A stretch of 64,000 nt of DNA, taken from NCBI GenBank assembly GCA_963422265.1, contig OY729416.1, positions 1,376,001 through 1,440,000 on the forward strand, written 5' to 3'. Under the pieces are notes generated by a model. That model had not been told where the DNA came from. It was given only the letters and a program-made list of their open reading frames with translations, and did not search any database. This document shows, piece by piece, positions 18,641 through 33,810 of this stretch. Position numbers and translations under genes: made by a program. How positions within the stretch are numbered: the stretch's first letter is position 1; each line of letters starts with the position of its first letter. The DNA is from Thermodesulfobacteriota bacterium (lineage in GTDB: Bacteria; Desulfobacterota_D; UBA1144; Nemesobacterales; UBA2774).

Positions 18641-18697
18641 AAATAGAGTTAGCTCTATAGCAAGTATCTGAGCTTTATGATAATTTATCTAGCGCTA

Positions 18698-19474
18698 ATG
18701 AGAATGAAGATTGAGTTTAGTTCAGACGACGAAGTCCGCCTTCCAATACATCATAACCATATAATACAGGGCGTTATTTACAGCTCTATTTCTTCCAAGC
18801 TGGCTAAAATGCTTCATGACAAAGGGTTTGAGTTTAATAATAGGAGGTTCAAACTTTTTACCTTTTCCAGAATCGAGGTGAATTTCAGAGTAGATAGAAA
18901 GGAAAATACTATAGTTTTTGGCTCTCCGTTCAGGCTTGTTATAAGCTCTGCCCTTAACCGGTTCATCGAAGAACTAGGAAACGAAATGCTCCGAAAAGAG
19001 CGTCTTAATATCGGAAAAAACACGGTAAGGGTCAACTCAATTGAGATCTCCAATTCTGTGCTATCGGACAAGAACAGGATAAAAATCCTCTCTCCCATAA
19101 CCATATACAGCACTCTTAAGAAAGCGGATGGGAAAAAGAAGACCTATTACTACTCGCCTTTTGAGGAAGAATTCTCTCACCTTGTCTCGGAGAATGCGAA
19201 GAAAAAGTTCAAAGCGTTTCATCAGGTGCATCCCCGAAAGCTGTTACCCAAGAACGTGAGTAAAAGCATTGAAGTAAAGAGAGCAATAAGCCTATCTCCG
19301 GTAGGCGTAAGACCCAACAATCAAAAGATAGTCAATTACAAAGGAACGATTATCAAAGGATGGATGGGAATTTATGAACTGAGCGGAGACCCCGAGCTTA
19401 TGAAGATGGTCTATGACGCCGGTCTCGGTGGCAAAAACTCACAGGGTTTTGGATGTTTTGAGGTTTTGGGGTGA
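18698..19474 (+). CDS. cas6: CRISPR endoribonuclease Cas6
   Basis: FKLFTFS and C-terminal G-rich loop GLGGKNSQGFG; start placed at MRMKIEF. Confidence 0.95.
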   Translation: MRMKIEFSSDDEVRLPIHHNHIIQGVIYSSISSKLAKMLHDKGFEFNNRRFKLFTFSRIEVNFRVDRKENTIVFGSPFRLVISSALNRFIEELGNEMLRKERLNIGKNTVRVNSIEISNSVLSDKNRIKILSPITIYSTLKKADGKKKTYYYSPFEEEFSHLVSENAKKKFKAFHQVHPRKLLPKNVSKSIEVKRAISLSPVGVRPNNQKIVNYKGTIIKGWMGIYELSGDPELMKMVYDAGLGGKNSQGFGCFEVLG

Positions 19475-19509
19475 TAGGATTGACTATGCGGGAATGAGTA
19501 TTAGTTTTT

Positions 19510-19590
19510 ATCCAAGGGATACCTACGAGGGATTGAAACTTTGGATTGTTATAAGATTGTTCAGCATATCTACCTATAAGGAATGAATGG
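19510..19590 (+). ncRNA. Degenerate CRISPR mini-array (crRNA-like regulatory RNA, CreA/CreR type)
   Basis: TACCTACGAGGGATTGAAAC (19520-19539, 18/20 to the repeat 3' end), ~21-nt spacer 19540-19560, then CTACCTATAAGGAATGAA (19570-19587). Confidence 0.8.
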
Positions 19591-19592
19591 TC

Positions 19593-19649
19593 TTGACAGT
19601 TTTGATATGATGTTCATCTTAATTTTATGCTATTTGGATTGTTGTAAGA
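19593..19649 (+). promoter_or_regulatory. Putative promoter region containing the mini-spacer target site
   Basis: TTGACA 19593; TTGATA(19602)-18-TATGCT(19626); target TTTGGATTGTTGTAAGA 19633-19649. Confidence 0.6.
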
Positions 19650-19684
19650 AACCTACCAAACACTAAATTGTTTAGGAGTAAACA

Positions 19685-19750
19685 ATGAAACACATAAGCG
19701 TAAAAATCGAAGAGCAAAGAGAAAAAGTTGTCACTAAGAAATCAATATAG
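19685..19750 (+). CDS. Candidate 21-aa leader or mini ORF (MKHISVKIEEQREKVVTKKSI)
   Basis: Strong TAGGAG RBS correctly spaced before ATG 19685. Confidence 0.35.
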   Translation: MKHISVKIEEQREKVVTKKSI

Positions 19751-19953
19751 ATACTCTTGCGTGCAAAATGACAGCGAAACATACGTTGATCCGACAACTC
19801 ATTGCTCTCGCAACCAACGCAGTTGTTTGCATCCCATAGGTTTACAGGGGAAGAGAAGAGGAGATGATTCAAGCAATGACAAAACCCAACAAGATGTTGA
19901 GAATAGGCTGAATGGGTGTGGATAAAATATCAGAGAAGGTTATTGTGTAAGAG

Positions 19954-21315
19954 ATGAACATGTTAGAAGAGATTATATATCAAAAATCAATGGGAAATCC
20001 ATTCATTGACGCTGGTGTGAGTGTAATGAGTCAATGGTTGGATATAAAGCCGCATGAAATTACTTCTGATGATTTAAGAAGGGTTGTAAAAGGAATTGTC
20101 CCTGTGTTTAACAATACGAGTTTTAAGAAAAGTTTATATTCTATATTTCCCAACAGTACTTTTACTAATAACTCTATAAGAGGTGATAGAAAAGCGAAAT
20201 TCATTTGTGATTGCAATAAATATATTGATGCCATTATAGTAATGCAGGACTCGGGCGATTGCCTTGGGTGTGGTAGGCGTAACTCAACCTACAAATTAGG
20301 AAAAGATAAAGTTCCTTTAACAGGAAGTGGAAAACTTGCAAATTTCTTTCCGAGTTTTGACAAGGGTGTGGGATATTGCTCAGCTTGTACTCTTGCAATC
20401 CAGTTTTCACCCTTATCATTTGTTGCCAGCGGTGGAAAATTGTTAATGCTTAGTTCTACTTCATGGCAAGCAATGGTTTCATGGACAAAAATATGCGTTA
20501 AAGACATACGAAGCAAGATGTTAAAAGGTGAAGACGTAACTTGTTATAACCCTGGATACTCTAATCCACGTAATGGCTTATTTTACATGGCAGGTGAAAT
20601 GATTAAGCTCGAGGAAGGCGGGGTAACAAATGAAGATGTGTCTATGCAGGTGTTTTATTTTACAAACTACAATCAAGGTCCGGAATTAGAAATTTTTTAT
20701 CTTCCTACACCGGCATTTAGATTTCTCCGCTATGCTAACCAAATTCAATATAAATCTGCGTGGATTAGCATTGTCAAAAGTGGCTATCAGAAAGTAAACT
20801 GGAACAAAGTAAAATTAGAAGATGATTACAAAAATAAGTATAACCTTGTTTATGAATATCTTTTACAAGAAAGGTCAATTATACAGTTCTTTCTAAATCA
20901 GAAGGAAAGAAAACAAAGAGGTGATTGGGAATTACTCTCTCTTTACTTAAAGGAGGTTAGAAATATGAGTGAAGAAAGGATTGAAGTGATTAGAAAAGTA
21001 GCTGATAAAATCGCAGATATTATAGAGAAATCTAGAAGTGATAAAAGACTAGGTCAGTTGGAAAGAGCAGGAAGCTACAGGGAGTTCCAAAACATACTTA
21101 GGTTTATTATAAAAGACAGATTAAAAAATGATGAAGATGAATGTCTTTTTACGTTGGATGAATATACAAAACATTTATTTCCTGATGGTTCACGCACATG
21201 GAAAGAGACGCAGTATTTATTATTGTTCGGAATTTACGAGACTCTTCATGAATGGCTTAAAGATAAGGGAATAATAGAAGATGAAAATACAAACCAATCA
21301 ACGGAGGAAAACTAG
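19954..21315 (+). CDS. cas8: Type I-B large subunit Cas8 (Cst1/Cas8b-like)
   Basis: GNPFIDAG N-terminus, CxxC pairs, PLTGSG..NF; lies before cas7. Confidence 0.88.
   Translation: MNMLEEIIYQKSMGNPFIDAGVSVMSQWLDIKPHEITSDDLRRVVKGIVPVFNNTSFKKSLYSIFPNSTFTNNSIRGDRKAKFICDCNKYIDAIIVMQDSGDCLGCGRRNSTYKLGKDKVPLTGSGKLANFFPSFDKGVGYCSACTLAIQFSPLSFVASGGKLLMLSSTSWQAMVSWTKICVKDIRSKMLKGEDVTCYNPGYSNPRNGLFYMAGEMIKLEEGGVTNEDVSMQVFYFTNYNQGPELEIFYLPTPAFRFLRYANQIQYKSAWISIVKSGYQKVNWNKVKLEDDYKNKYNLVYEYLLQERSIIQFFLNQKERKQRGDWELLSLYLKEVRNMSEERIEVIRKVADKIADIIEKSRSDKRLGQLERAGSYREFQNILRFIIKDRLKNDEDECLFTLDEYTKHLFPDGSRTWKETQYLLLFGIYETLHEWLKDKGIIEDENTNQSTEEN
20965..21315 (+). CDS. cas11: Putative Cas11 from an internal in-frame start in cas8
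   Basis: AAGGAGG at 20950-20956, in-frame ATG 20965, 116-aa helical product. Confidence 0.7.
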   Translation: MSEERIEVIRKVADKIADIIEKSRSDKRLGQLERAGSYREFQNILRFIIKDRLKNDEDECLFTLDEYTKHLFPDGSRTWKETQYLLLFGIYETLHEWLKDKGIIEDENTNQSTEEN

Positions 21316-21317
21316 TT

Positions 21318-22343
21318 ATGTCTAAACATATTATTGGACTTGTACTTATAGACGCACCGTTTTCGGCTCTTAATAACGCAGGGACAGAAGCCTCTCAATC
21401 AACTGAAAACATAGTTGCTGTAAAAACATTAAGAAAGGGGCGGAATGTGTATCCCTATGTATCAGGACAGGCTTGGAGAAATTGGTGGAGGATTACTCTT
21501 GAGAAAGAACTTGTATGGAATCTTTCTCCCATTACACGGGGAACGAAAACAGCTTTTACTGCTGCAGATCCGGTGGAATATCCTGATGACGATCTTTTTG
21601 GTTATATGCGTGCGCAGTCAGAAGAGGTTCACCAAGAAGGCAAGAAGCCTAAAAAACAAAACATTACAGTTACTCGTTTATCTCCTCTCAAATGTTCTCC
21701 TCTTATCTCAATTGAGTCTCAACAGCCAACTAACGACTTTGGAGTTATGGCACGACAAGAGGACAATCCTGTTCCTTATGAACATCAATTTTATTCAACT
21801 GTCTTAAAAGGAATTTTTTCACTTGATTTAAGCGCCGTCGGCACATTTTGGAACGTTAATAAAACGGGTTACAAAAATGTCTCTGAACAATATGCCGAAA
21901 AGATCAGAGAAAACGGTGGAATACAGTCTGATGATAAAACTCATTGGATTCTGCCAAAAGATATACGGCTAAAAAGAAGCAAAGACGTAATTAAGGCTTT
22001 GTCTGTAATAAGCGGTGGGGCGAATTTAACCTCTCATCTAACGGATGTTACACCTAAGTTAATAATTCTTGGAGTAAATGAGGGTGGAAATCATCCATTT
22101 ATGCATCTGGTGGTAGAGAAACAAGGGAAAGGTGAATTTAGCATTCCAGCATTTAAGCAGGTTTTAGAAGATTATAAGGATAGGCTGGATTCTATCTACG
22201 TAGGGAGGAGAGAAGGTTTTATGGATGAGCTAGATGACTCTCTAACTAATCTCGCCAAATATAATGAACGAGTGATCTACAGTTCGCCTAATAATGTTAT
22301 TAGTGAACTGACCGAAAGCCTTGGACAATACTTAGATGGGTAG
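21318..22343 (+). CDS. cas7: Cas7 (Cst2/DevR family)
   Basis: YPYVSGQAWR, DDLFGYMRA, VTRLSPL. Confidence 0.93.
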   Translation: MSKHIIGLVLIDAPFSALNNAGTEASQSTENIVAVKTLRKGRNVYPYVSGQAWRNWWRITLEKELVWNLSPITRGTKTAFTAADPVEYPDDDLFGYMRAQSEEVHQEGKKPKKQNITVTRLSPLKCSPLISIESQQPTNDFGVMARQEDNPVPYEHQFYSTVLKGIFSLDLSAVGTFWNVNKTGYKNVSEQYAEKIRENGGIQSDDKTHWILPKDIRLKRSKDVIKALSVISGGANLTSHLTDVTPKLIILGVNEGGNHPFMHLVVEKQGKGEFSIPAFKQVLEDYKDRLDSIYVGRREGFMDELDDSLTNLAKYNERVIYSSPNNVISELTESLGQYLDG

Positions 22344-22362: not shown

Positions 22363-22989
22363 ATGGAAGTCCTAAGGATTCACATAACGGGTTGGGTTGC
22401 TTCATTTCGCAACCCTTTATTTGTAAGTGGGTATCAGCCTACTTTATCTGTTCCACCAGTTTCGACCGTTTACGGTTTAATCTCGGCAGCTTACGGAGAC
22501 TACATAACTCCTGGCCGAGCAAACATAGGGTATGTTTTTCACAGTGAAGGTAGAGCAGTTGATTTGGAAACCATATATGAATTTGGGGGAGGTTTAGATG
22601 CAAAGCCCAACATCATAAAACGTGAATTTCTCTTATCACCGCATCTATATATCTATACCCCAGATATATGGTTGAAAGAAGTATTTGAGGAACCTCATTA
22701 TCCTTTACTATTGGGTCGTTCCACAGAACTTGCAACAGTTGAATCAATAGAAAAGATCGTATTAAAAAAAGTAACCGAAACAAATTATTGTGGCACCCTG
22801 ATACCATTTCCAAATGACCAAATATCTGGGACTTTGCATGCTCTTCCAACTCACTTTACTCAAGACCAACCTCGTCGTCCCCAGGGTATTCGTGCTTTTC
22901 TTGCTGTTACAAAAAGAAATGGTTACGTAGGGGATGCATGGGAAGATAATGATAAGGGGTGGGGTGTTTATTTTTATGGGAAAGGATAG
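22363..22989 (+). CDS. cas5: Cas5
   Basis: ASFRNP...PTLSVPPVSTVYGLISAA, LLGRS. Confidence 0.93.
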   Translation: MEVLRIHITGWVASFRNPLFVSGYQPTLSVPPVSTVYGLISAAYGDYITPGRANIGYVFHSEGRAVDLETIYEFGGGLDAKPNIIKREFLLSPHLYIYTPDIWLKEVFEEPHYPLLLGRSTELATVESIEKIVLKKVTETNYCGTLIPFPNDQISGTLHALPTHFTQDQPRRPQGIRAFLAVTKRNGYVGDAWEDNDKGWGVYFYGKG

Positions 22990-25231
22990 CTCCGAACCTA
23001 TTCTTGCTAAAAGTGAACCTAAAGAAAGTTTATTAGATCATACCAAGAACTGCATTGAAGTCTATTTGAGCATTAGAGATAGAATGCCGTTCTTGGGAGA
23101 CACATCTGGAAATTCTGATTTCTTTGAACATTTGTATTATGCAGTTGCTTTGCATGATCTAGGAAAAGCCGCAGAAGGTTTTCAGGATCAGCTTAAACCT
23201 AACGGTAGAAGATGGAATTATAGACATGAAATACTATCAGCTGGATTCACAGTTGGAGTGCAGTTGCCAGATATAGCTAAACAGGCAATTGGGCTGTCAG
23301 TCCTTACACACCATAAAGATATTAAAACTCTTAGGAGTAATTATCCATGCTTTCCAGAAAGGAACCCAGGCTTTGCAACTTATCAGAAAAAAGTGAAAGA
23401 AATGAAAGCAAATTGGGAACAAATAATTCAAATTCAAAACTACATAATAAAGATGTGTCCTGAGAACGAATGCCGATTTGAGCCTGTTGAAGATACTGGT
23501 GAAGTAATAAATGCTTACGAAAGTTATCTCTTGCCCTATTATAAGAATATTGAAAACGGGGACTCTACCGACTTACGGAACAACTATGGAATGCTTATGC
23601 GTGGGTGTTTAATTGCATGCGATCATCTGGCTTCGGATAGTTCGGGAGAAAATAAAATAATCTGTGCTTTAGAAAATTTAGATGGAGCTTTAAAAAGTAA
23701 TATTAGGGATAGGAACATAAAATGGAATAGCGTGCAAAAATCCTCTATGGATACTCATGGCAATTTAATGCTTTCTGCTCCTACGGGGTCGGGGAAAACA
23801 GAAGCATCTATGTTATGGAGTAGCATTAATCAGAATAAGACAAATGGTAAGAGAGTATTTTACGTATTGCCTTATACCGCTAGCATAAATGCAATGTATA
23901 AGAGATTGAAAGGAGTATTAACAGGTGAGAGAGTGTGTATGTTGCACGGCAAAGCATCTTACTTTCATTATAGATCTCTTGCTAATTGGGAAGATGATTA
24001 TTTCACAAGGCAAACTACTGTCAAAAAAATACAGAGCTTATCTCGAAAGATATACAGACCATACAAGGTATTAACACCATTCCAATTACTTAAATCTTTT
24101 TTTGGCATCAAGGGTTTTGAAATGCAGTTTGCTGAGATGTCAAATGGATTGTTCATCTTTGATGAAATTCACGCTTACGATGAGCATACCACCGCATTGA
24201 TAATAAAGATGATTGAGAAATTATATAAAGACTACAATGCAAAAATTTGTGTTATGACTGCCACTATGCCTAAATTTCTCAAAGATAAGATTGAAGATGT
24301 TTTTTGTAGAGCGGACTATAATGACGTGGCAATGCCATCAGATGAGAGGAATAAATCATATACGCGTCATAAGGTTAAGATGTTGGGTGATAATATGCTT
24401 GGAGTAATCCCACATATAAAAGAGGAATTAGAGCGCGGCAGAAAAGTAATGGTTGTGTGCAATACGGTAAAGAAGTCACAAGAAGTTTATAAAGAGTTAC
24501 AAGATGACAAGACCAAGTCCGTGCTTATACACAGCAGATTTATTCTGAAGGACAGAGAACGAATAGAGGCCAATTTGAAAGATGTTGATTTAATTGTGGG
24601 GACTCAAGCCGTTGAAGTTTCGCTTGATATTGACTTTGATGTTTTATTTACAGAGCCGGCGCCGTTGGATTCTCTAATTCAAAGGTTTGGCAGGATCAAT
24701 CGTAAGAACAAAAAAGGTATTTGTAATGTATTTATTTGTAAAATAGGGGGTAAAAGTGATAGATATATCTATTCACAGAAAATTGTTGATAAGACAGTTG
24801 AGGTGCTTGTAAATATTGATATTTTATATGAGTCTGAAATACAAGGCTTGATAGACACCGTATATGGTCAAGGGTATACAGAGGTTCAGGAAGAGAAATA
24901 TAATTATATAAGAGATACTTTTGAAACACATTTAAACTCTTTAAATCCATTCATTGAAAATCCCGAAAGTGAGCAAGAGTTTGAAGGATTATTTAAGAGT
25001 GTTGAAGTTGTTCCTGAGCAATTTCAGAATGAGTATTTAGAATGCGTTGATCAGAAAAAATATTATGAATCTATGTCTTATATAACTCAAATATCTCAAC
25101 GACGATTCCAGAGATTAAAGAAGGAAAAGTTGATCAATATTATTGATGGAAACTGTATTGTTAATGTTGGATATGATGAAAAACTCGGATTATTGGTTGA
25201 AAAGGAAAATCATCCGTATAAGGAATTCTAA
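22976..25231 (+). CDS. cas3: Cas3 HD nuclease-helicase
   Basis: LHDLGKA, RHE, APTGSGKTE, DEIH, MTAT, QRFGRINR; start probably MGKDS at 22976. Confidence 0.96.
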   Translation: MGKDSSEPILAKSEPKESLLDHTKNCIEVYLSIRDRMPFLGDTSGNSDFFEHLYYAVALHDLGKAAEGFQDQLKPNGRRWNYRHEILSAGFTVGVQLPDIAKQAIGLSVLTHHKDIKTLRSNYPCFPERNPGFATYQKKVKEMKANWEQIIQIQNYIIKMCPENECRFEPVEDTGEVINAYESYLLPYYKNIENGDSTDLRNNYGMLMRGCLIACDHLASDSSGENKIICALENLDGALKSNIRDRNIKWNSVQKSSMDTHGNLMLSAPTGSGKTEASMLWSSINQNKTNGKRVFYVLPYTASINAMYKRLKGVLTGERVCMLHGKASYFHYRSLANWEDDYFTRQTTVKKIQSLSRKIYRPYKVLTPFQLLKSFFGIKGFEMQFAEMSNGLFIFDEIHAYDEHTTALIIKMIEKLYKDYNAKICVMTATMPKFLKDKIEDVFCRADYNDVAMPSDERNKSYTRHKVKMLGDNMLGVIPHIKEELERGRKVMVVCNTVKKSQEVYKELQDDKTKSVLIHSRFILKDRERIEANLKDVDLIVGTQAVEVSLDIDFDVLFTEPAPLDSLIQRFGRINRKNKKGICNVFICKIGGKSDRYIYSQKIVDKTVEVLVNIDILYESEIQGLIDTVYGQGYTEVQEEKYNYIRDTFETHLNSLNPFIENPESEQEFEGLFKSVEVVPEQFQNEYLECVDQKKYYESMSYITQISQRRFQRLKKEKLINIIDGNCIVNVGYDEKLGLLVEKENHPYKEF

Positions 25232-25732
25232 GTGAATGAGGTAGCAATTACTGGAAATATAGTCCAATACTATTTCATTTGTAAGAGGAAAATATGGCTT
25301 AGTTCAAGACAAATATCGCCTGACCAAGATAATGCCCACTTAGAATTAGGCAGATTCATAAGCGAAACCACGTATAAAAGAAATAAAAAAGAGATTAGAT
25401 TAGAAAACATTATCGTTGACCTTTCAAAACTTGATAGTGAAAAGGTGGTTGTCGGAGAAGTAAAAAAAAGCTCCAAAGCTTCGGAAGCAGCTAGGATGCA
25501 GCTTGCGTTTTATCTTTACACCCTAAGAGAATATGGGATAGATGCTGAAGGCGAGCTTCTTTTTCCAAAGGAGAAGAAAAAGGAAAAGGTGCTTTTAGAT
25601 GAAGGGCTTACACAGAAACTTGAAAATGCAATTGAGGAGATAAAAACCATCGCAGCAGGAGATGTGCCACCGCCTGCGGTTAAAATCAGATATTGCACGA
25701 ACTGCGCCTACAGGGAGTTTTGCTGGAGCTAG
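25232..25732 (+). CDS. cas4: Cas4
   Basis: YYFICKRKIW, EVKKS, QLAFYL, CTNCAYREFCW. Confidence 0.95.
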   Translation: MNEVAITGNIVQYYFICKRKIWLSSRQISPDQDNAHLELGRFISETTYKRNKKEIRLENIIVDLSKLDSEKVVVGEVKKSSKASEAARMQLAFYLYTLREYGIDAEGELLFPKEKKKEKVLLDEGLTQKLENAIEEIKTIAAGDVPPPAVKIRYCTNCAYREFCWS

Positions 25733-26017: not shown

Positions 26018-26395
26018 ATGAGAAGAACCCAGCTTTATTTGAAAGAAGAGCAGTGCGATTATCTGTTAAAAGAGTCCCTTAATAAATGGAAAAACATTGC
26101 GGGGATTATAAGAGAATTGATAGACGTTAGTATCTCTTCAGAACGGAATAAATTGGGGCGCAGATCTTTCTGGAACGTCTGCGAAGACGGCTTTTTAACC
26201 GGGATCAAAAACGGATCAGTTTCTCATGACAAGTTTATATATATAAATCTAAATTGGATATTGATGAATAGCAAGAGAGTTTTTATTGATACAAGTGCGT
26301 TTATTGCATTAACCCGATCGCACAAATTTTTCAATTTACAATAGATTAAGAATAAGAGAAGTTTTCGCATTTGATGTGCATTTTACCAGTTTGGC
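26018..26395 (+). pseudogene. Decayed RHH antitoxin plus internally deleted PIN (VapC) toxin
   Basis: MRRTQLYL..IIRELID (RHH-like); VFIDTSAFIAL (PIN N-terminus); IREVFAFDVHF (PIN C-terminus) only about 50 nt later. Confidence 0.7.
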
Positions 26396-26437: not shown

Positions 26438-27439
26438 ATGGCTAATAGAATATTTATTTTCAGCAACGGGGAACTAAAGAGAAAGCAGAACACACTTTTC
26501 TTTGAGAATGGGGATGGCGAGAAAAAGTATATTCCCGTTGAAACTACTCAGGAGTTGATGGTGTTCGGGGAGGTAAGTCTTAATAAAAAGTTTCTGGATT
26601 TCGCTTCACAGAACCAGATGATCCTTCACTTCTTTAACTATTACGGCTATTACTCAGGAAGCTACTATCCGAGGGAACACCTAAACTCGGGACACATGAT
26701 CCTAAGGCAGGCGGAAGCTTACCTTGGTACGGATAGAAGAATAGGGATTGCGCGAAAGATTGTTCAAGGTGCAGTCCGGAATATTCTTAAAGTTATTGAT
26801 TACTACGTAAGAAGAAAAGAGGATGAACAAGTTAGAGAAGTAAGGTTTCAAATAGATGACCTTTATGCAAAAATTGCTGATCAGGATTCGACAGACACGC
26901 TGATGGCTATTGAGGGAAATATAAGAGACAGATACTACTCTGCCTTTGACAAGATTGTTGAAAACGACACTTTTAAATTTGAAAGTAGGACGAGACGCCC
27001 TCCCAAAAATAGGATGAATGCTTTAATCAGTTTTGGAAATTCACTCCTTTATACAACCGTGCTTAGCGAAATTTATAAAACTCACCTTGATCCTCGTATC
27101 GGTTTTCTTCACACGACCAATTTCAGAAGGTTTAGTTTGAACCTTGACATAGCAGAGATATTTAAGCCCGTGCTCGTTGATAGAATGCTGTTTTCCTTGA
27201 TAAACAAAGGCGAGCTGAAGGCTAAACATTTTGAGAAGAGGATGGGAGGAGTGGTTATGAATGAGAGTGGAATGAAGATTTTTTCAAAGGAATTTGAAGA
27301 GAGGCTTCAAAGAACCGTGAAACACAGAAAGATTGGCAAGCCCGTATCAAACAGAAGGCTCATGAGGCTTGAGCTTTATAAGCTGGAAAAGCACCTGATC
27401 GGCGAAGAAGAATATAAGCCCTTTGTATGGGAGTGGTAA
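26438..27439 (+). CDS. cas1: Cas1 (type I-B)
   Basis: FFNYYGYYSGSYYP, NALISFGNSLLY, FSLNLDIAEIFKP. Confidence 0.97.
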   Translation: MANRIFIFSNGELKRKQNTLFFENGDGEKKYIPVETTQELMVFGEVSLNKKFLDFASQNQMILHFFNYYGYYSGSYYPREHLNSGHMILRQAEAYLGTDRRIGIARKIVQGAVRNILKVIDYYVRRKEDEQVREVRFQIDDLYAKIADQDSTDTLMAIEGNIRDRYYSAFDKIVENDTFKFESRTRRPPKNRMNALISFGNSLLYTTVLSEIYKTHLDPRIGFLHTTNFRRFSLNLDIAEIFKPVLVDRMLFSLINKGELKAKHFEKRMGGVVMNESGMKIFSKEFEERLQRTVKHRKIGKPVSNRRLMRLELYKLEKHLIGEEEYKPFVWEW

Positions 27440-27443
27440 AGCA

Positions 27444-27707
27444 ATGTTCGTGATACTTGTTTATGATGTGGGGCAGAAGAGGGTCGCCAAAGTTTTAAGG
27501 ACTAGCAGAAAGTATCTTAACTGGGTTCAAAACTCGGTTTTGGAAGGAGAGCTTACAAAAGCGCAATACGAAACCTTAAAGTTCGAATTAAATGGTATAA
27601 TAAAAGAGAAGTATGATTCTCTTATCTTTTATACTTTTAGAACGAGGAAGTATTCTCTAAGGGAGTTAATTGGGGTTCAAAAAGGTGGAGAAGAGGTATT
27701 TATCTAA
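27444..27707 (+). CDS. cas2: Cas2
   Basis: MFVILVYDV, WVQNSVLEG. Confidence 0.96.
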   Translation: MFVILVYDVGQKRVAKVLRTSRKYLNWVQNSVLEGELTKAQYETLKFELNGIIKEKYDSLIFYTFRTRKYSLRELIGVQKGGEEVFI

Positions 27708-27896: not shown

Positions 27897-30800
27897 CTTT
27901 TTTGACTACCTATAAGGGATTGAAACAGCGTAAACTTAGATCACTTTTCAAAGCCATTTTCAACTTTTTTGACTACCTATAAGGGATTGAAACCTGTGCA
28001 TCTGTAATTTACCTCCATTTTACAACCTCCTTTCTTTTTTGACTACCTATAAGGGATTGAAACATCACTAAAATTTGGCATCTCGCCTCCTTATGGCGGC
28101 TTTTTTGACTACCTATAAGGGATTGAAACTCCCCTTCCCGGATCGCCTCGCCGTAGCCGTCCCCGACTTTTTTGACTACCTATAAGGGATTGAAACTTGT
28201 CGATCTTCAGGGGAGCGTAGCAGTTCGTTCTCCCTTTTTTGACTACCTATAAGGGATTGAAACTTGCCATTGCGGTACGCTCCCCCATAGCCGTCCCCTC
28301 TTTTTTGACTACCTATAAGGGATTGAAACTCGAAAATATCCCCCGCTCCTAAATTACGGGTACCTTCTTTTTTGACTACCTATAAGGGATTGAAACCTGC
28401 CTTCACGGCGCGCACTACAGGCGCCGCCGCCAACTTTTTTGACTACCTATAAGGGATTGAAACTAGAGATTTTGCTCGGGTCGAAAGAATCGGGGGTTGC
28501 TTTTTTGACTACCTATAAGGGATTGAAACGTAATTCGCATAATACAACCTCCTAGTAATTTGATTGCTTTTTTGACTACCTATAAGGGATTGAAACTGAT
28601 GGTGGCAGCGTCGAAAGAAGAAATTGAAAGTGACTTTTTTGACTACCTATAAGGGATTGAAACGCATAAGGAGGTAGGACATGAAAGATATCAGAGGATA
28701 TCTTTTTTGACTACCTATAAGGGATTGAAACACTCTCCCGTATGTCCAGGCCACGAGAGCGAGCCGTCCTTTTTTGACTACCTATAAGGGATTGAAACTT
28801 GCCATTGCGGTACGCTCCCCCATAGCCGTCCCCTGCTTTTTTGACTACCTATAAGGGATTGAAACTTGTCCTGTGCCTCGTCCAACAGAGAGTAAACCCA
28901 GTCCTTTTTTGACTACCTATAAGGGATTGAAACCTCGTAATCTCGCTCTGCCTTTTCTAGAGCATCGCCCCTTTTTTGACTACCTATAAGGGATTGAAAC
29001 AGTTGAAATGAATTCTAAATGTTCGAATCCAGTCATTCTTTTTTGACTACCTATAAGGGATTGAAACTAGAGGTGGACTACCTCTACGATGAAATTGAAG
29101 AAGACTTTTTTGACTACCTATAAGGGATTGAAACGTTGTCGTTCGCCTCGTCCAACAGGGCGTAAACCCAGCTTTTTTGACTACCTATAAGGGATTGAAA
29201 CTGATTGGACTTAACCCTACACACTTCTCGGGTCACCTTTTTTGACTACCTATAAGGGATTGAAACTGAAGATCGACAATGGCTGTGGGAAGAGGCAATC
29301 GCCTTTTTTGACTACCTATAAGGGATTGAAACTAAAAATAATGATTAAGCCAATCTTCACAATCGCCAACTTTTTTGACTACCTATAAGGGATTGAAACA
29401 GACAATTCCCTCGTACCTATCTCTGCGGAGTAGTTTACTTTTTTGACTACCTATAAGGGATTGAAACAATAGTATAAAGTATACTATCTACATATCAAAC
29501 AAGACTTCTTTGACTACCTATAAGGGATTGAAACCCGTTTTTGCTTCGTTTTTCTCACAGGGGCGTTCATGGCTTCTTTGACTACCTATAAGGGATTGAA
29601 ACTCCCCGATGTGCCACGCGTGCCCGTCGCCGTCCCCCTCCTTCTTTGACTACCTATAAGGGATTGAAACACATTGAATCAGCATAAGAAGGATTAGCCT
29701 TGTCCACTTCTTTGACTACCTATAAGGGATTGAAACTCTCAAGTCTCTTGTTACGACTGGTCGTGTTCGGAAGCTTCTTTGACTACCTATAAGGGATTGA
29801 AACAACAATAGAATAGTTAATAAAATGATTATAATCATAACTTCTTTGACTACCTATAAGGGATTGAAACTGCGATACGAGTTTCCTTTGCCTTCGCCAT
29901 CATGGCCTTCTTTGACTACCTATAAGGGATTGAAACTCAAGAACAATTTTTTTATTTCTGATCCCATCAGGGACTTCTTTGACTACCTATAAGGGATTGA
30001 AACCGATTCTACCCTCAGAATCGCGATAGGTTTGATGCGGCTTCTTTGACTACCTATAAGGGATTGAAACTGTTCTTTCCTCCTTATGCGGGCGGTTTAT
30101 ACGCCCCTTCTTTGACTACCTATAAGGGATTGAAACTATTTCTAATGGGTACGGGATCCTCGGGGAGGCAAGCTTCTTTGACTACCTATAAGGGATTGAA
30201 ACTGCCTTCTTCTGCTGCAGGTAGCCCTGTAGTTTGGCCCTTCTTTGACTACCTATAAGGGATTGAAACCCTTGTGCCAAAACGCAGTTTTCATATTGTG
30301 TCCGTCTTCTTTGACTACCTATAAGGGATTGAAACATCGGCACTTTGAGAGAAGAAGATCGACAAGCGTTAGCTTCTTTGACTACCTATAAGGGATTGAA
30401 ACTAGAAAAGGATTGTGCTCGTATAGATAAACTACTTCCTTCTTTGACTACCTATAAGGGATTGAAACTGGGAACGGACTTTGTGAAAAGAGCTCAAGGC
30501 GGGACTTCTTTGACTACCTATAAGGGATTGAAACCGTCGTCGATCAACTCGTTCAACAGCGCGTAAACCGCCTTCTTTGACTACCTATAAGGGATTGAAA
30601 CGCGCCCATATGACCTATACCGGTCTGAAGTCCACGAGCTTCTTTGACTACCTATAAGGGATTGAAACTGATTCTTCAGATCCCAGTAAAATTTCTACAG
30701 GTTGGCTTCTTTGACTACCTATAAGGGATTGAAACCCCGTAACGGCGGCGGGGCGTAATTGGTAATTTTACTTCTTTGACTACCTATAAGGGATTGAAAC

Positions 30801-31733
30801 GCATAGGAGGAAAGAAATAGGAGGTAATAAAATGTATCTTCTTTGACTACCTATAAGGGATTGAAACCATTGTGCCAAAACGCAGTTTTCCAATTCTGCC
30901 CGTCCCTTCTTTGACTACCTATAAGGGATTGAAACCCCGTAACGGCGGCGGGGCGTAATTGGTAATTTTACTTCTTTGACTACCTATAAGGGATTGAAAC
31001 CTCTACAAAATAGTACGATTTGAAGAAGGTTCCACATTCTTCTTTGACTACCTATAAGGGATTGAAACTTGCAAGGAAAGCTCAAACGGGTGTCTGGATT
31101 AGGGCTTCTTTGACTACCTATAAGGGATTGAAACGTCGTGTTCGTGATAGAATCCAGAAAGTAGAGCAATCCTTCTTTGACTACCTATAAGGGATTGAAA
31201 CACGTAGAAACTGGCAGCCAGCCATATGAAACCGCCGCCTTCTTTGACTACCTATAAGGGATTGAAACTGCGATACGAGTTTCCTTTTCCTTTGCCATCG
31301 TGGCACTTCTTTGACTACCTATAAGGGATTGAAACTGGAAATGTTATCTTAAGATGCCTGGAGTGGTTCATTCTTCTTTGACTACCTATAAGGGATTGAA
31401 ACTCCGAAAAACAGGTATCCACACATTTTCCATCTTCTCCTTCTTTGACTACCTATAAGGGATTGAAACTGAGCAAAGTCATAGACGAAGCAGGCGACAA
31501 GTCAACTTCTTTGACTACCTATAAGGGATTGAAACTGGAAATGTTATCTCAAAATGCCTGGCGTTGTTCATCTTCTTTGACTACCTATAAGGGATTGAAA
31601 CGCGCGAACTCCCGGAACATCTGTCTGACTTTGTCGCTTCTTTGACTACCTATAAGGGATTGAAACGCAGGATCGAGTAGCCTTAGAATCATATGTTGCG
31701 ATTCTTCTTTGACTACCTATAAGGGATTGAAAC
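27897..31733 (+). CRISPR. CRISPR array, 58 repeats / 57 spacers, repeat CTT(T/C)TTTGACTACCTATAAGGGATTGAAAC
   Basis: Direct count of 30-nt repeats, spacers 35-40 nt; the 3' ATTGAAAC handle and the leader position give orientation. Confidence 0.99.
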
Positions 31734-33539: not shown

Positions 33540-33810
33540 ACCCTCACCCTGTGTCCCTCTCCCAGGGGGAAAAGGGGGTCTGAACTAGGATTTTTAGGAT
33601 TGAATGAGGGGCTGTGATTGAAAGGGGAAAGATCAAATGCCCCTAAATCCCCCTTTTCTAAAGGGGGAGAAGGCAGAGAATCGCCCTCACCCTGTGTCCC
33701 TCTCCCGGAGGGAAAGGATGTCTGAACTAAGATTTTTAGGATTGAATGAGAGGCTATGATTGAAAGGGGAAAGATCAAATGCCCCTAAATCCCCCTTTTC
33801 TAAAGGGGGA
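33540..33810. repeat. Composite palindromic repeat, two near-identical tandem units
   Basis: CCCTCACCCTGTGTCCCTCTCCC..TCTGAACTA..GCCCCTAAATCCCCCTTTTCTAAAGGGGGA twice. Confidence 0.9.

Follow-up and report, generated by a model that had tools for sequence, protein, structure and literature searches.

A candidate CreR-type regulatory mini-CRISPR between cas6 and cas8 in a bacterial type I-B (Cas8b1/Cst1) locus

‘Stand-alone’ creA-like genes, named creR (Cas-regulating RNA), repress cas promoters in type I-B, I-E and V-A systems (Liu et al., bioRxiv 10.1101/2023.03.10.532045; this and the other papers mentioned below are cited from excerpts). The repeats of creA and creR undergo ‘divergent degeneration’, in which the first repeat keeps the 5′ handle and the second one the 3′ handle (Liu et al.; PMC8501985). 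CreA of Haloarcula hispanica, which lies between cas6 and cas8, acts as a repressor of P_creT as well as of P_cas8 (Liu et al.). More generally, mini-arrays occur in ∼19% of bacterial type I-B loci and are enriched beside cas6 (Shmakov et al., bioRxiv 10.1101/2023.03.03.530964). This class of regulatory elements has been in print since 2021–2023, and the locus presented here reveals no new mechanism; it adds to the CreR class a well-documented bacterial case of the Cas8b1 type, and such single-case evidence is seldom laid out.

The locus lies in a stretch of 64 000 nt of bacterial DNA, called the window, to which all positions refer unless a contig is named. Judged from sequence, the element is very probably a functional regulatory mini-CRISPR of the CreR type in a bacterial type I-B (Cas8b1/Cst1) system. 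It likely guides Cascade to a site in the same intergenic gap, repressing transcription toward cas8. What is observed, namely the anatomy, the low probability of a chance match, conservation and the covariation of guide and target, is considered before the proposed mechanism and its rivals.

The type I-B locus and the mini-array in the cas6–cas8 gap

The type I-B locus in the window is complete and of the Cas8b1/Cst1 kind, and all its cas genes score above the NCBIfam cut-offs. On the forward strand, cas6 (265 aa; 18677–19474; TIGR01877, E 5.4e-41) is followed by genes recognized by profile matches, namely cas8b1/cst1 (19954–21315), which is the first effector gene and has its ATG at 19954, cas7 (21318–22343), cas5 (22363–22989), cas3 (22934–25231), cas4 (25232–25732), cas1 (26438–27439) and cas2 (27423–27707). 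The families found (TIGR01908, TIGR02585, TIGR01895, TIGR01587/01596, TIGR00372, TIGR03641, TIGR01573 and TIGR01877, each above its cut-off) make up the type I-B1 set, i.e. Cas8b1, Cas7/Cst2, Cas5t, Cas3, Cas4, Cas1b, Cas2 and Cas6, together with a repeat that terminates in ATTGAAAC. A 108-aa open reading frame (ORF) between cas4 and cas1 (26018–26344) is without an NCBIfam family and has a sub-threshold match to DUF6979 only.

The CRISPR array (27897–31733, + strand) comprises 58 repeats of 30 nt and 57 spacers of 35–40 nt; the canonical crRNAs derive from it and would be competitors of the mini-array RNA for Cas proteins. Two repeat variants are present, 24 repeats starting with CTTTTTT and 34 with CTTCTTT; TRF places the former at 28100–29202 and the latter from 29840 onward. 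One spacer is present twice (30736 and 30936), and related spacers form several families that seem to be directed at variants of the same foreign genes, with offsets of one base in some. Beyond the array, a tandem repeat with a 142-nt unit (1.9 copies, 93% matches) is found at 33541–33810.

Away from this array, the 479-nt gap between cas6 and cas8b (19474 to 19954) contains a mini-array, in the kind of location where CreR-type regulatory mini-arrays lie. An earlier sequence-only reading had seen here two decayed repeat copies around a spacer of about 21 nt, which correspond to a degenerate repeat psiR1 (19510–19539, + strand), a spacer-like guide psiS (19540–19560, + strand) and a second degenerate repeat psiR2 (19561–19590, + strand). 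The last 12 nt of psiR1, including the 8-nt 5′ handle ATTGAAAC, are identical to the CRISPR repeat, and its positions 19519–19539 correspond to the 21-nt 3′ core of the repeat with 3 mismatches. Beyond the 58-repeat array, psiR1 is the sole match to the repeat core in the window (59 matches in total, 0 expected). Compared over 30 nt, psiR1 retains 12/22 of the first 22 nt and 8/8 of the last 8 nt of the repeat; psiR2 retains 13/22 and 3/8, having kept the 3′-handle part, with CTACCTATAAGG exact at 19570–19581, and lost the last 8 nt. Such an asymmetry (8/8 of the handle in psiR1, 13/22 versus 3/8 in psiR2) is ‘divergent degeneration’ and therefore counts for the CreR reading, as do two degenerate repeats around one spacer, the first with the 8-nt 5′ handle and the second with the 3′-handle part. 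At 21 nt, psiS is short compared with the 57 array spacers of 35–40 nt.

Read in the sequence, the CCT-ACG-AGG hairpin of psiR1 (19522–19530) appears to retain its stem and to have a counterpart in psiR2 (19573–19581), and two changes within the psiR1 core would fall in the loop of this small CCT/AGG hairpin present in both pseudo-repeats. Rfam gave nothing above threshold for the element, CRISPR-DR2 on psiR1 being sub-threshold (24.6 bits versus a gathering score of 37); folding of the mini-array transcript was uninformative (z −0.98), and a scan of viral contigs for copies of the mini-array in phage gave 0 hits.

As for expression, the sequence-only reading had proposed a promoter for the RNA itself, TTGACT-16-TAGTTT (19480–19507, + strand). 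The two hexamers are indeed present in the sequence (19480–19485 and 19502–19507), yet this possible promoter is weak and absent from the promoter-scan list, as its second hexamer matches the consensus at only 3/6 positions. Alternatively, the mini-array RNA may arise by read-through of cas6.

The in-gap target, its promoter and its flank

The first 17 nt of psiS (19540–19556) match a site in the same gap (19633–19649, + strand) at 16/17 positions; position 12 is mismatched, and identity ends at position 18, which is mismatched as well. The match starts exactly at the psiR1/psiS junction. All of this had been noticed in the sequence-only reading and holds. Given the base composition of the gap, 1.5e-5 sites of at least 16/17 are expected in 479 nt on both strands, and none of 3000 first-order Markov random gaps reached 16/17, the best giving 15/17 once. 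Genome-wide, 19633–19649 is the best non-self match of the guide when positions 6 and 12 are ignored. Direct copies of at least 16/17 within 30–500 nt exist for 1.2% of genome positions; this frequency is a poor null, dominated by long repeats, so that random gaps and shuffled guides were used as nulls instead.

The target adjoins the −10 hexamer of a σ70-like promoter pointing toward a small ORF and cas8, TTGATA-18-TATGCT (19602–19631, + strand; 9/12 in the promoter scan), which is known as a consensus match only. Here too the sequence-only reading stands, having placed the target behind this promoter and ahead of a strong ribosome-binding site, a 21-aa ORF and cas8; the AGGAG motif is at 19674–19678 and the ATG of the ORF at 19685. 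With the site directly after the promoter, the PAM position (CTA, 19630–19632, + strand) takes in the final two bases of the −10 hexamer, and the start of transcription expected from this promoter would be covered by the guide. In the CreR class, pairing is seed-proximal (at least 10 nt from position 1) and located at or near a cas promoter; here it spans positions 1–17 with the mismatch at 12. In the promoter/terminator scan, no terminator-like site is found on the + strand from the target to cas8, and a transcript starting at ∼19640 would therefore run into cas8. However, the distance from the target to the cas8 ATG is 305 nt, with three weaker promoter-like sites between them (19728–55, 19841–68 and 19876–904), and for this reason the promoter proposed to be repressed may not be the main cas8 promoter.

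The purified Cas8b1 Cascade of Thermotoga maritima offers a point of reference for the flank and for the tolerated mismatches (PMC13199841). It has the same repeat-adjacent AAC as the present system, its PAM is YYD and its seed consists of positions 1–5 and 7; a mismatch at 6 is without effect, and a target with a mismatch at 9 is bound like a perfect one. The flanks in the window (CTA) and in two sister loci detailed below, G013 (CCA) and G004 (TCA), each fit YYD. The mismatches found in the three loci (6, 9 and 12) are tolerated ones according to the T. maritima data (6 and 9), positions 6 and 12 being unpaired. The sequence-only reading had cautioned that CTA departs from the CCN PAM suggested by the spacers. 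This caveat is largely removed by the fit of CTA to YYD; CTA, like TCA, is also a PAM, albeit a weak one, in the type I-B system of P. thermoglucosidasius (PMC10551041). The local hints are for CCN, and if CCN were the PAM of the system, CTA would be suboptimal. By analogy with T. maritima, and by that analogy only, CTA would be a PAM of the sort found in the CreR class.

Three related array spacers offset by single bases seem compatible with a CCN PAM, which is a weak hint, and one partial protospacer (23/24 nt of the spacer at 29468) occurs in G063 with a CCA flank, too weak a case to define a PAM. Among the 57 array spacers, there is no match longer than 19 nt elsewhere in the genome and none in a phage collection, and three spacer patterns gave 0 hits in viral contigs. 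Searched against 120 genomes of the phylum, the whole array mainly matches other arrays, and 255 spacers of relatives match the genome of the window (G000) over at most 17 nt. A 17-mer of one G013 spacer recurs at eight places in G000:C1:309899–317029, mostly 285 nt or multiples thereof apart, which suggests a long repeat family, tandem or dispersed.

The extent of pairing bears on the outcome of binding. In P. thermoglucosidasius, type I-B guides pairing over at most 26 nt repress without cutting, and the switch point from repression to cleavage is 24 nt in H. hispanica (both from PMC10551041). Pairing over 17 nt in the window, 17 nt in G013 and 22 nt in G004 is below this 24–26-nt switch of type I-B systems.

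Conservation in strain variants and covariation in sister loci

Strain variants were compared over 19350–20050 using contigs from four public runs. Of the runs listed for the region, none is on record as RNA; one (X9) is RNA by guess only and consists of contigs, which are silent on expression. One contig (X6 record 5; 5964 nt) starts at 19414 and spans the whole gap. It has no listed difference over 19517–19608, i.e. the conserved part of psiR1, psiS, psiR2 and 18 nt beyond, and its flanks (19491–19516 and 19609–19750) carry 10 listed substitutions and 4 indels; as differences near contig ends are omitted from the list, 2 of the 12 substitutions counted for this record cannot be placed. Within the target, only positions 12, which becomes identical to psiS, and 17, which becomes a mismatch, are changed. 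The PAM and both hexamers of TTGATA-18-TATGCT are without a listed change, the changes at 19609, 19615 and 19618 lying between the hexamers. The listed changes of strain variants around TTGACT-16-TAGTTT (19489, 19491, 19492 and 19510) lie between or after its hexamers. From 19751 to 19953, X6 record 5 differs by one indel only. Three other contigs agree with the window through the psiR1 handle and into psiS, for 5, 11 or 15 nt, and are unlike it from there on; in one of them, a second repeat follows that is better kept. Since the psiR1 handle and the first 5–15 nt of psiS are kept in all strain variants, the seed-proximal part is the constant part of the element.

Relatives of the locus are few. 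Within the phylum, Cas6 relatives were found in 10 of 120 genomes and Cas8b relatives in 2 of 120; a search with Cas8b retrieved only G013 across the phylum and none among the genome contigs. A mini-array is present in the cas6–cas8 gap of all three Cas6-bearing loci of one family, f1 (G000, G013 and G004); in the neighbouring family f7, five gaps could be read and none has one. The related set thus consists of three loci only, two of them of one genus. The psiS differs from one f1 locus to the next, and each is matched by a site of its own upstream of cas8. In G013, psiS pairs with a cas-sense site in the gap over positions 1–17 with mismatches only at 6, 9 and 12 (flank CCA), and in G004 with an in-gap site at 20/22 positions with mismatches at 6 and 9 (flank TCA), the latter site being the best match of its psiS in the whole genome. 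With positions 6 and 12 ignored, none of 3000 random gaps was as good in either case. The first base of the G004 site is the last one of the −10 hexamer of TTGACT-17-TATCAT (10/12, toward cas8); the PAM is inside this hexamer, and the site ends 33 nt upstream of the cas8 ATG. At the G013 site, the only promoter listed points the opposite way, and none in the cas sense was detected.

In both sister loci, the mini-array runs against the cas genes, on the other strand, and has a terminator hairpin behind it; despite this inversion, the target is on the cas-sense strand in all three loci. An alignment of the G013 gap with that of G004 extends over psiR1, psiR2 and the terminator hairpin and puts the two targets in the same columns; alignment of the G000 and G013 gaps gave no homology beyond the repeat-like parts. 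Ten of the guide positions 1–17 differ between G013 and G004, and the cognate target compensates at 8 of these 10. Spacer–target covariation in homologous loci, which the sequence-only reading had named as a check, is therefore seen; guide and target change together in the f1 loci (3/3 with a mini-array), and the mini-array of X6 record 5 is without a listed change. The Cas8 of G004 is a different protein of 585 aa, missed by the search with the Cas8b of the window, which means that the design has been kept across a change of large subunit.

Further afield, crude scans of 17 metagenome loci with Cas6 relatives (40–80% identity) gave no mini-array, their own repeats being unknown, which is not evidence of absence; in several of them the cas6–cas8 gap is only ∼30 nt. 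A scan for the psiR2–terminator block of G013 and G004 found only the contig of G004. Two more distant type I-B loci, L045 (G056) and L027 (metagenome), have cas6–cas8 gaps of 570–950 nt with short coding-looking stretches common to both, possibly cargo genes rather than a mini-array. In another, L046 (G038), a motif resembling GGGAATGACA occurs four times within 250 nt of the gap, in both orientations, and may be a protein-binding site replacing the mini-array.

Proposed mechanism, competing explanations and comparison with known systems

From this evidence we infer transcription and processing of the mini-array RNA, binding, repression, and a repressed promoter that feeds cas8. The psiR1–psiS–psiR2 unit would be transcribed from its own weak promoter or by cas6 read-through, and Cas6 would cut both degenerate repeats to yield a crRNA-like RNA of ∼51 nt (8-nt handle, 21-nt guide and 22-nt 3′ handle). 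Cascade carrying this RNA would recognize CTA at 19630–19632 and pair, over guide positions 1–17, with the site at 19633–19649. Pairing over 17 nt would be too short to license Cas3, so that the complex would remain bound as a repressor and lower transcription into the leader and cas8–cas7–cas5–cas3. Canonical crRNAs or anti-CRISPRs drawing off Cas proteins would relax the repression. Autorepression of the cas operon by Cascade, one of the two functions suggested in the sequence-only reading, gains support from the compensatory guide and target changes in G013 and G004 and from the unchanged mini-array of X6 record 5, in so far as sequence comparison can speak to it.

The other suggested function, the silencing of a small toxin, fares poorly. 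In a CreTA (CRISPR-regulated toxin–antitoxin) module, the mini-array RNA would be an antitoxin guide and the blocked promoter would drive a toxin, in the form of the 21-aa ORF (19685–19750, + strand) or of the 300 nt of RNA from target to cas8; a cell losing Cascade would then be poisoned. This is unlikely, though it does have points in its favour. CreTA modules of haloarchaeal type I-B loci occupy this same gap, the ORF follows a strong AGGAG located 6 nt before its ATG, right behind the promoter proposed to be repressed, and G013, on a reading of its sequence, also has a Shine–Dalgarno-like GAAGGAG and a short frame behind its target; moreover, 19751–19953 carries a single indel in the strain variant. 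However, known CreT toxins are highly translated mini-ORFs that need consecutive rare codons; in the present ORF, ATA and AGA occur singly and not in succession, and in 680 long ORFs of the genome no Ile or Arg codon is commoner (32.6 and 18.6 per 1000, respectively). Codon usage, the strain frame and the gap of G004 speak against membership in the CreTA class. When the listed strain differences are applied, the 21-aa frame becomes one of 75 aa, which argues against conservation of the peptide, and the ORF has no Pfam family; it is probably not a conserved gene. Lastly, the 33 nt between target and cas8 in G004 leave no room for such an ORF, and toxin control cannot be a function shared by the three loci, whose leaders have no common sequence, the leader of the window being without a notable fold (z −0.62).

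Even less probable is a decaying relic, either of an old array or of a recombination event, with the 17-nt repeat as a local duplication without present function. Recombination often gives rise to stand-alone repeats, many of them presumed to lack a function (Shmakov et al.); psiR2 is badly decayed and psiS is short, the divergence of other strain contigs after nt 5–15 of psiS implies rapid turnover, and the genome is rich in nearby repeats (the 1.2% of positions given above). A relic would not readily account for a match that begins at the handle/guide junction, ends at 17 and has its sole mismatch at an unpaired position, or for three loci with the same logic, different sequences and compensatory changes. 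Against it also stand the mini-array without a listed change in a strain with changed flanks and the psiR1 handle and first 5–15 nt of psiS kept in every strain variant.

A second near-perfect match of psiS 1–17 exists in the genome (G000:C1:721419–721435, i.e. L055 3920–3936, + strand; 16/17, mismatch at 15), with a flank, TCA, that fits YYD. It lies 222 nt inside a minus-strand gene beside dprA that encodes a 156-aa protein with a cNMP-binding domain (PF00027). Of 600 shuffled 17-mers, 24 had a genome hit of at least 16/17 and 3 had one with a YYD flank, and the match is probably due to chance. That the guide has here a second, PAM-flanked target outside the CRISPR locus is, judging from sequence, improbable; were it true, Cascade with the autoregulatory RNA would also throttle a host signalling gene and tie Cas abundance to host physiology, a role that scaRNA has for Francisella Cas9. 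In G013, psiS has a 15/17 match (positions 1–12 perfect, flank TTA) at L057 1501–1517 (G013:C2:294345–294361, minus strand), 80 nt upstream of a rhodanese-domain gene; as reversed-pattern controls give similar counts, this match too is probably a chance one. The stronger proposal, that the main job of the guide is the site in the cNMP-binding-protein gene and that the in-gap site is secondary, is very improbable: in spite of the 16/17 match with its YYD-fitting TCA, equalled by only 3 of the 600 shuffled guides, the site is within a coding region rather than at a promoter, the search was post hoc, and nothing comparable occurs in the sister loci, where the best site of G004 is the in-gap one and the other near-matches of G013 are beside unrelated genes, one of them the rhodanese gene.

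Autorepression by a CreR-type element is thus the preferred reading. At the sequence level, the features that characterize the CreR class are found at this locus, apart from the PAM, for which CTA would qualify by analogy only. Across the three related loci, guide and promoter site have both been replaced and still match, and the mini-array has flipped strand with the orientation of the target kept. Together these loci form a natural test set for self-targets held below the cleavage threshold and for the joint turnover of guide and target.

Among the known systems considered, the tracr-L and scaRNA of type II systems, for which Shmakov et al. is the source, share the principle of a partial-complementarity guide that makes a nuclease effector a transcriptional repressor; they rely on the single-protein Cas9 and another RNA architecture, and the mini-array is not in that group. 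The regulatory mini-arrays of Shmakov et al. resemble the present one, with a well-kept proximal and a degraded distal repeat, a conserved position with variable spacer and target, and 20–60-bp spacers partly matching cas promoters with a PAM. In their type I-B examples the cas6 promoter is targeted from upstream of cas6, whereas here the target is before cas8. CreTA and CreA of the type I-B systems of Haloarcula hispanica and Halobacterium hubeiense (Cheng et al. 2021, PMC8501985) have in common with the present element the cas6–cas8 gap and the guide design; their Cascade-bound site flanks P_cas8, a binding that is only proposed here. The present element differs from them in having neither a rare-codon mini-ORF toxin nor a divergent toxin promoter, and in its host, a bacterium and not an archaeon. 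A further comparison is with CreR (Liu et al.). Unlike the CreR cases, the present one is known from sequence alone and belongs to a different bacterial lineage with Cas8b1/Cst1; its target is 305 nt from cas8 with a Shine–Dalgarno-led mini-ORF in between, and the mini-arrays of its sister loci are inverted. The likeness to CreR consists in a two-repeat degenerate mini-array inside the cas locus, in the 5′ handle of psiR1 and the 3′ handle of psiR2, in the lack of a convincing toxin partner, and in seed-proximal partial pairing beside an effector-gene promoter, over 15 nt in their Salmonella case and 17 nt here.
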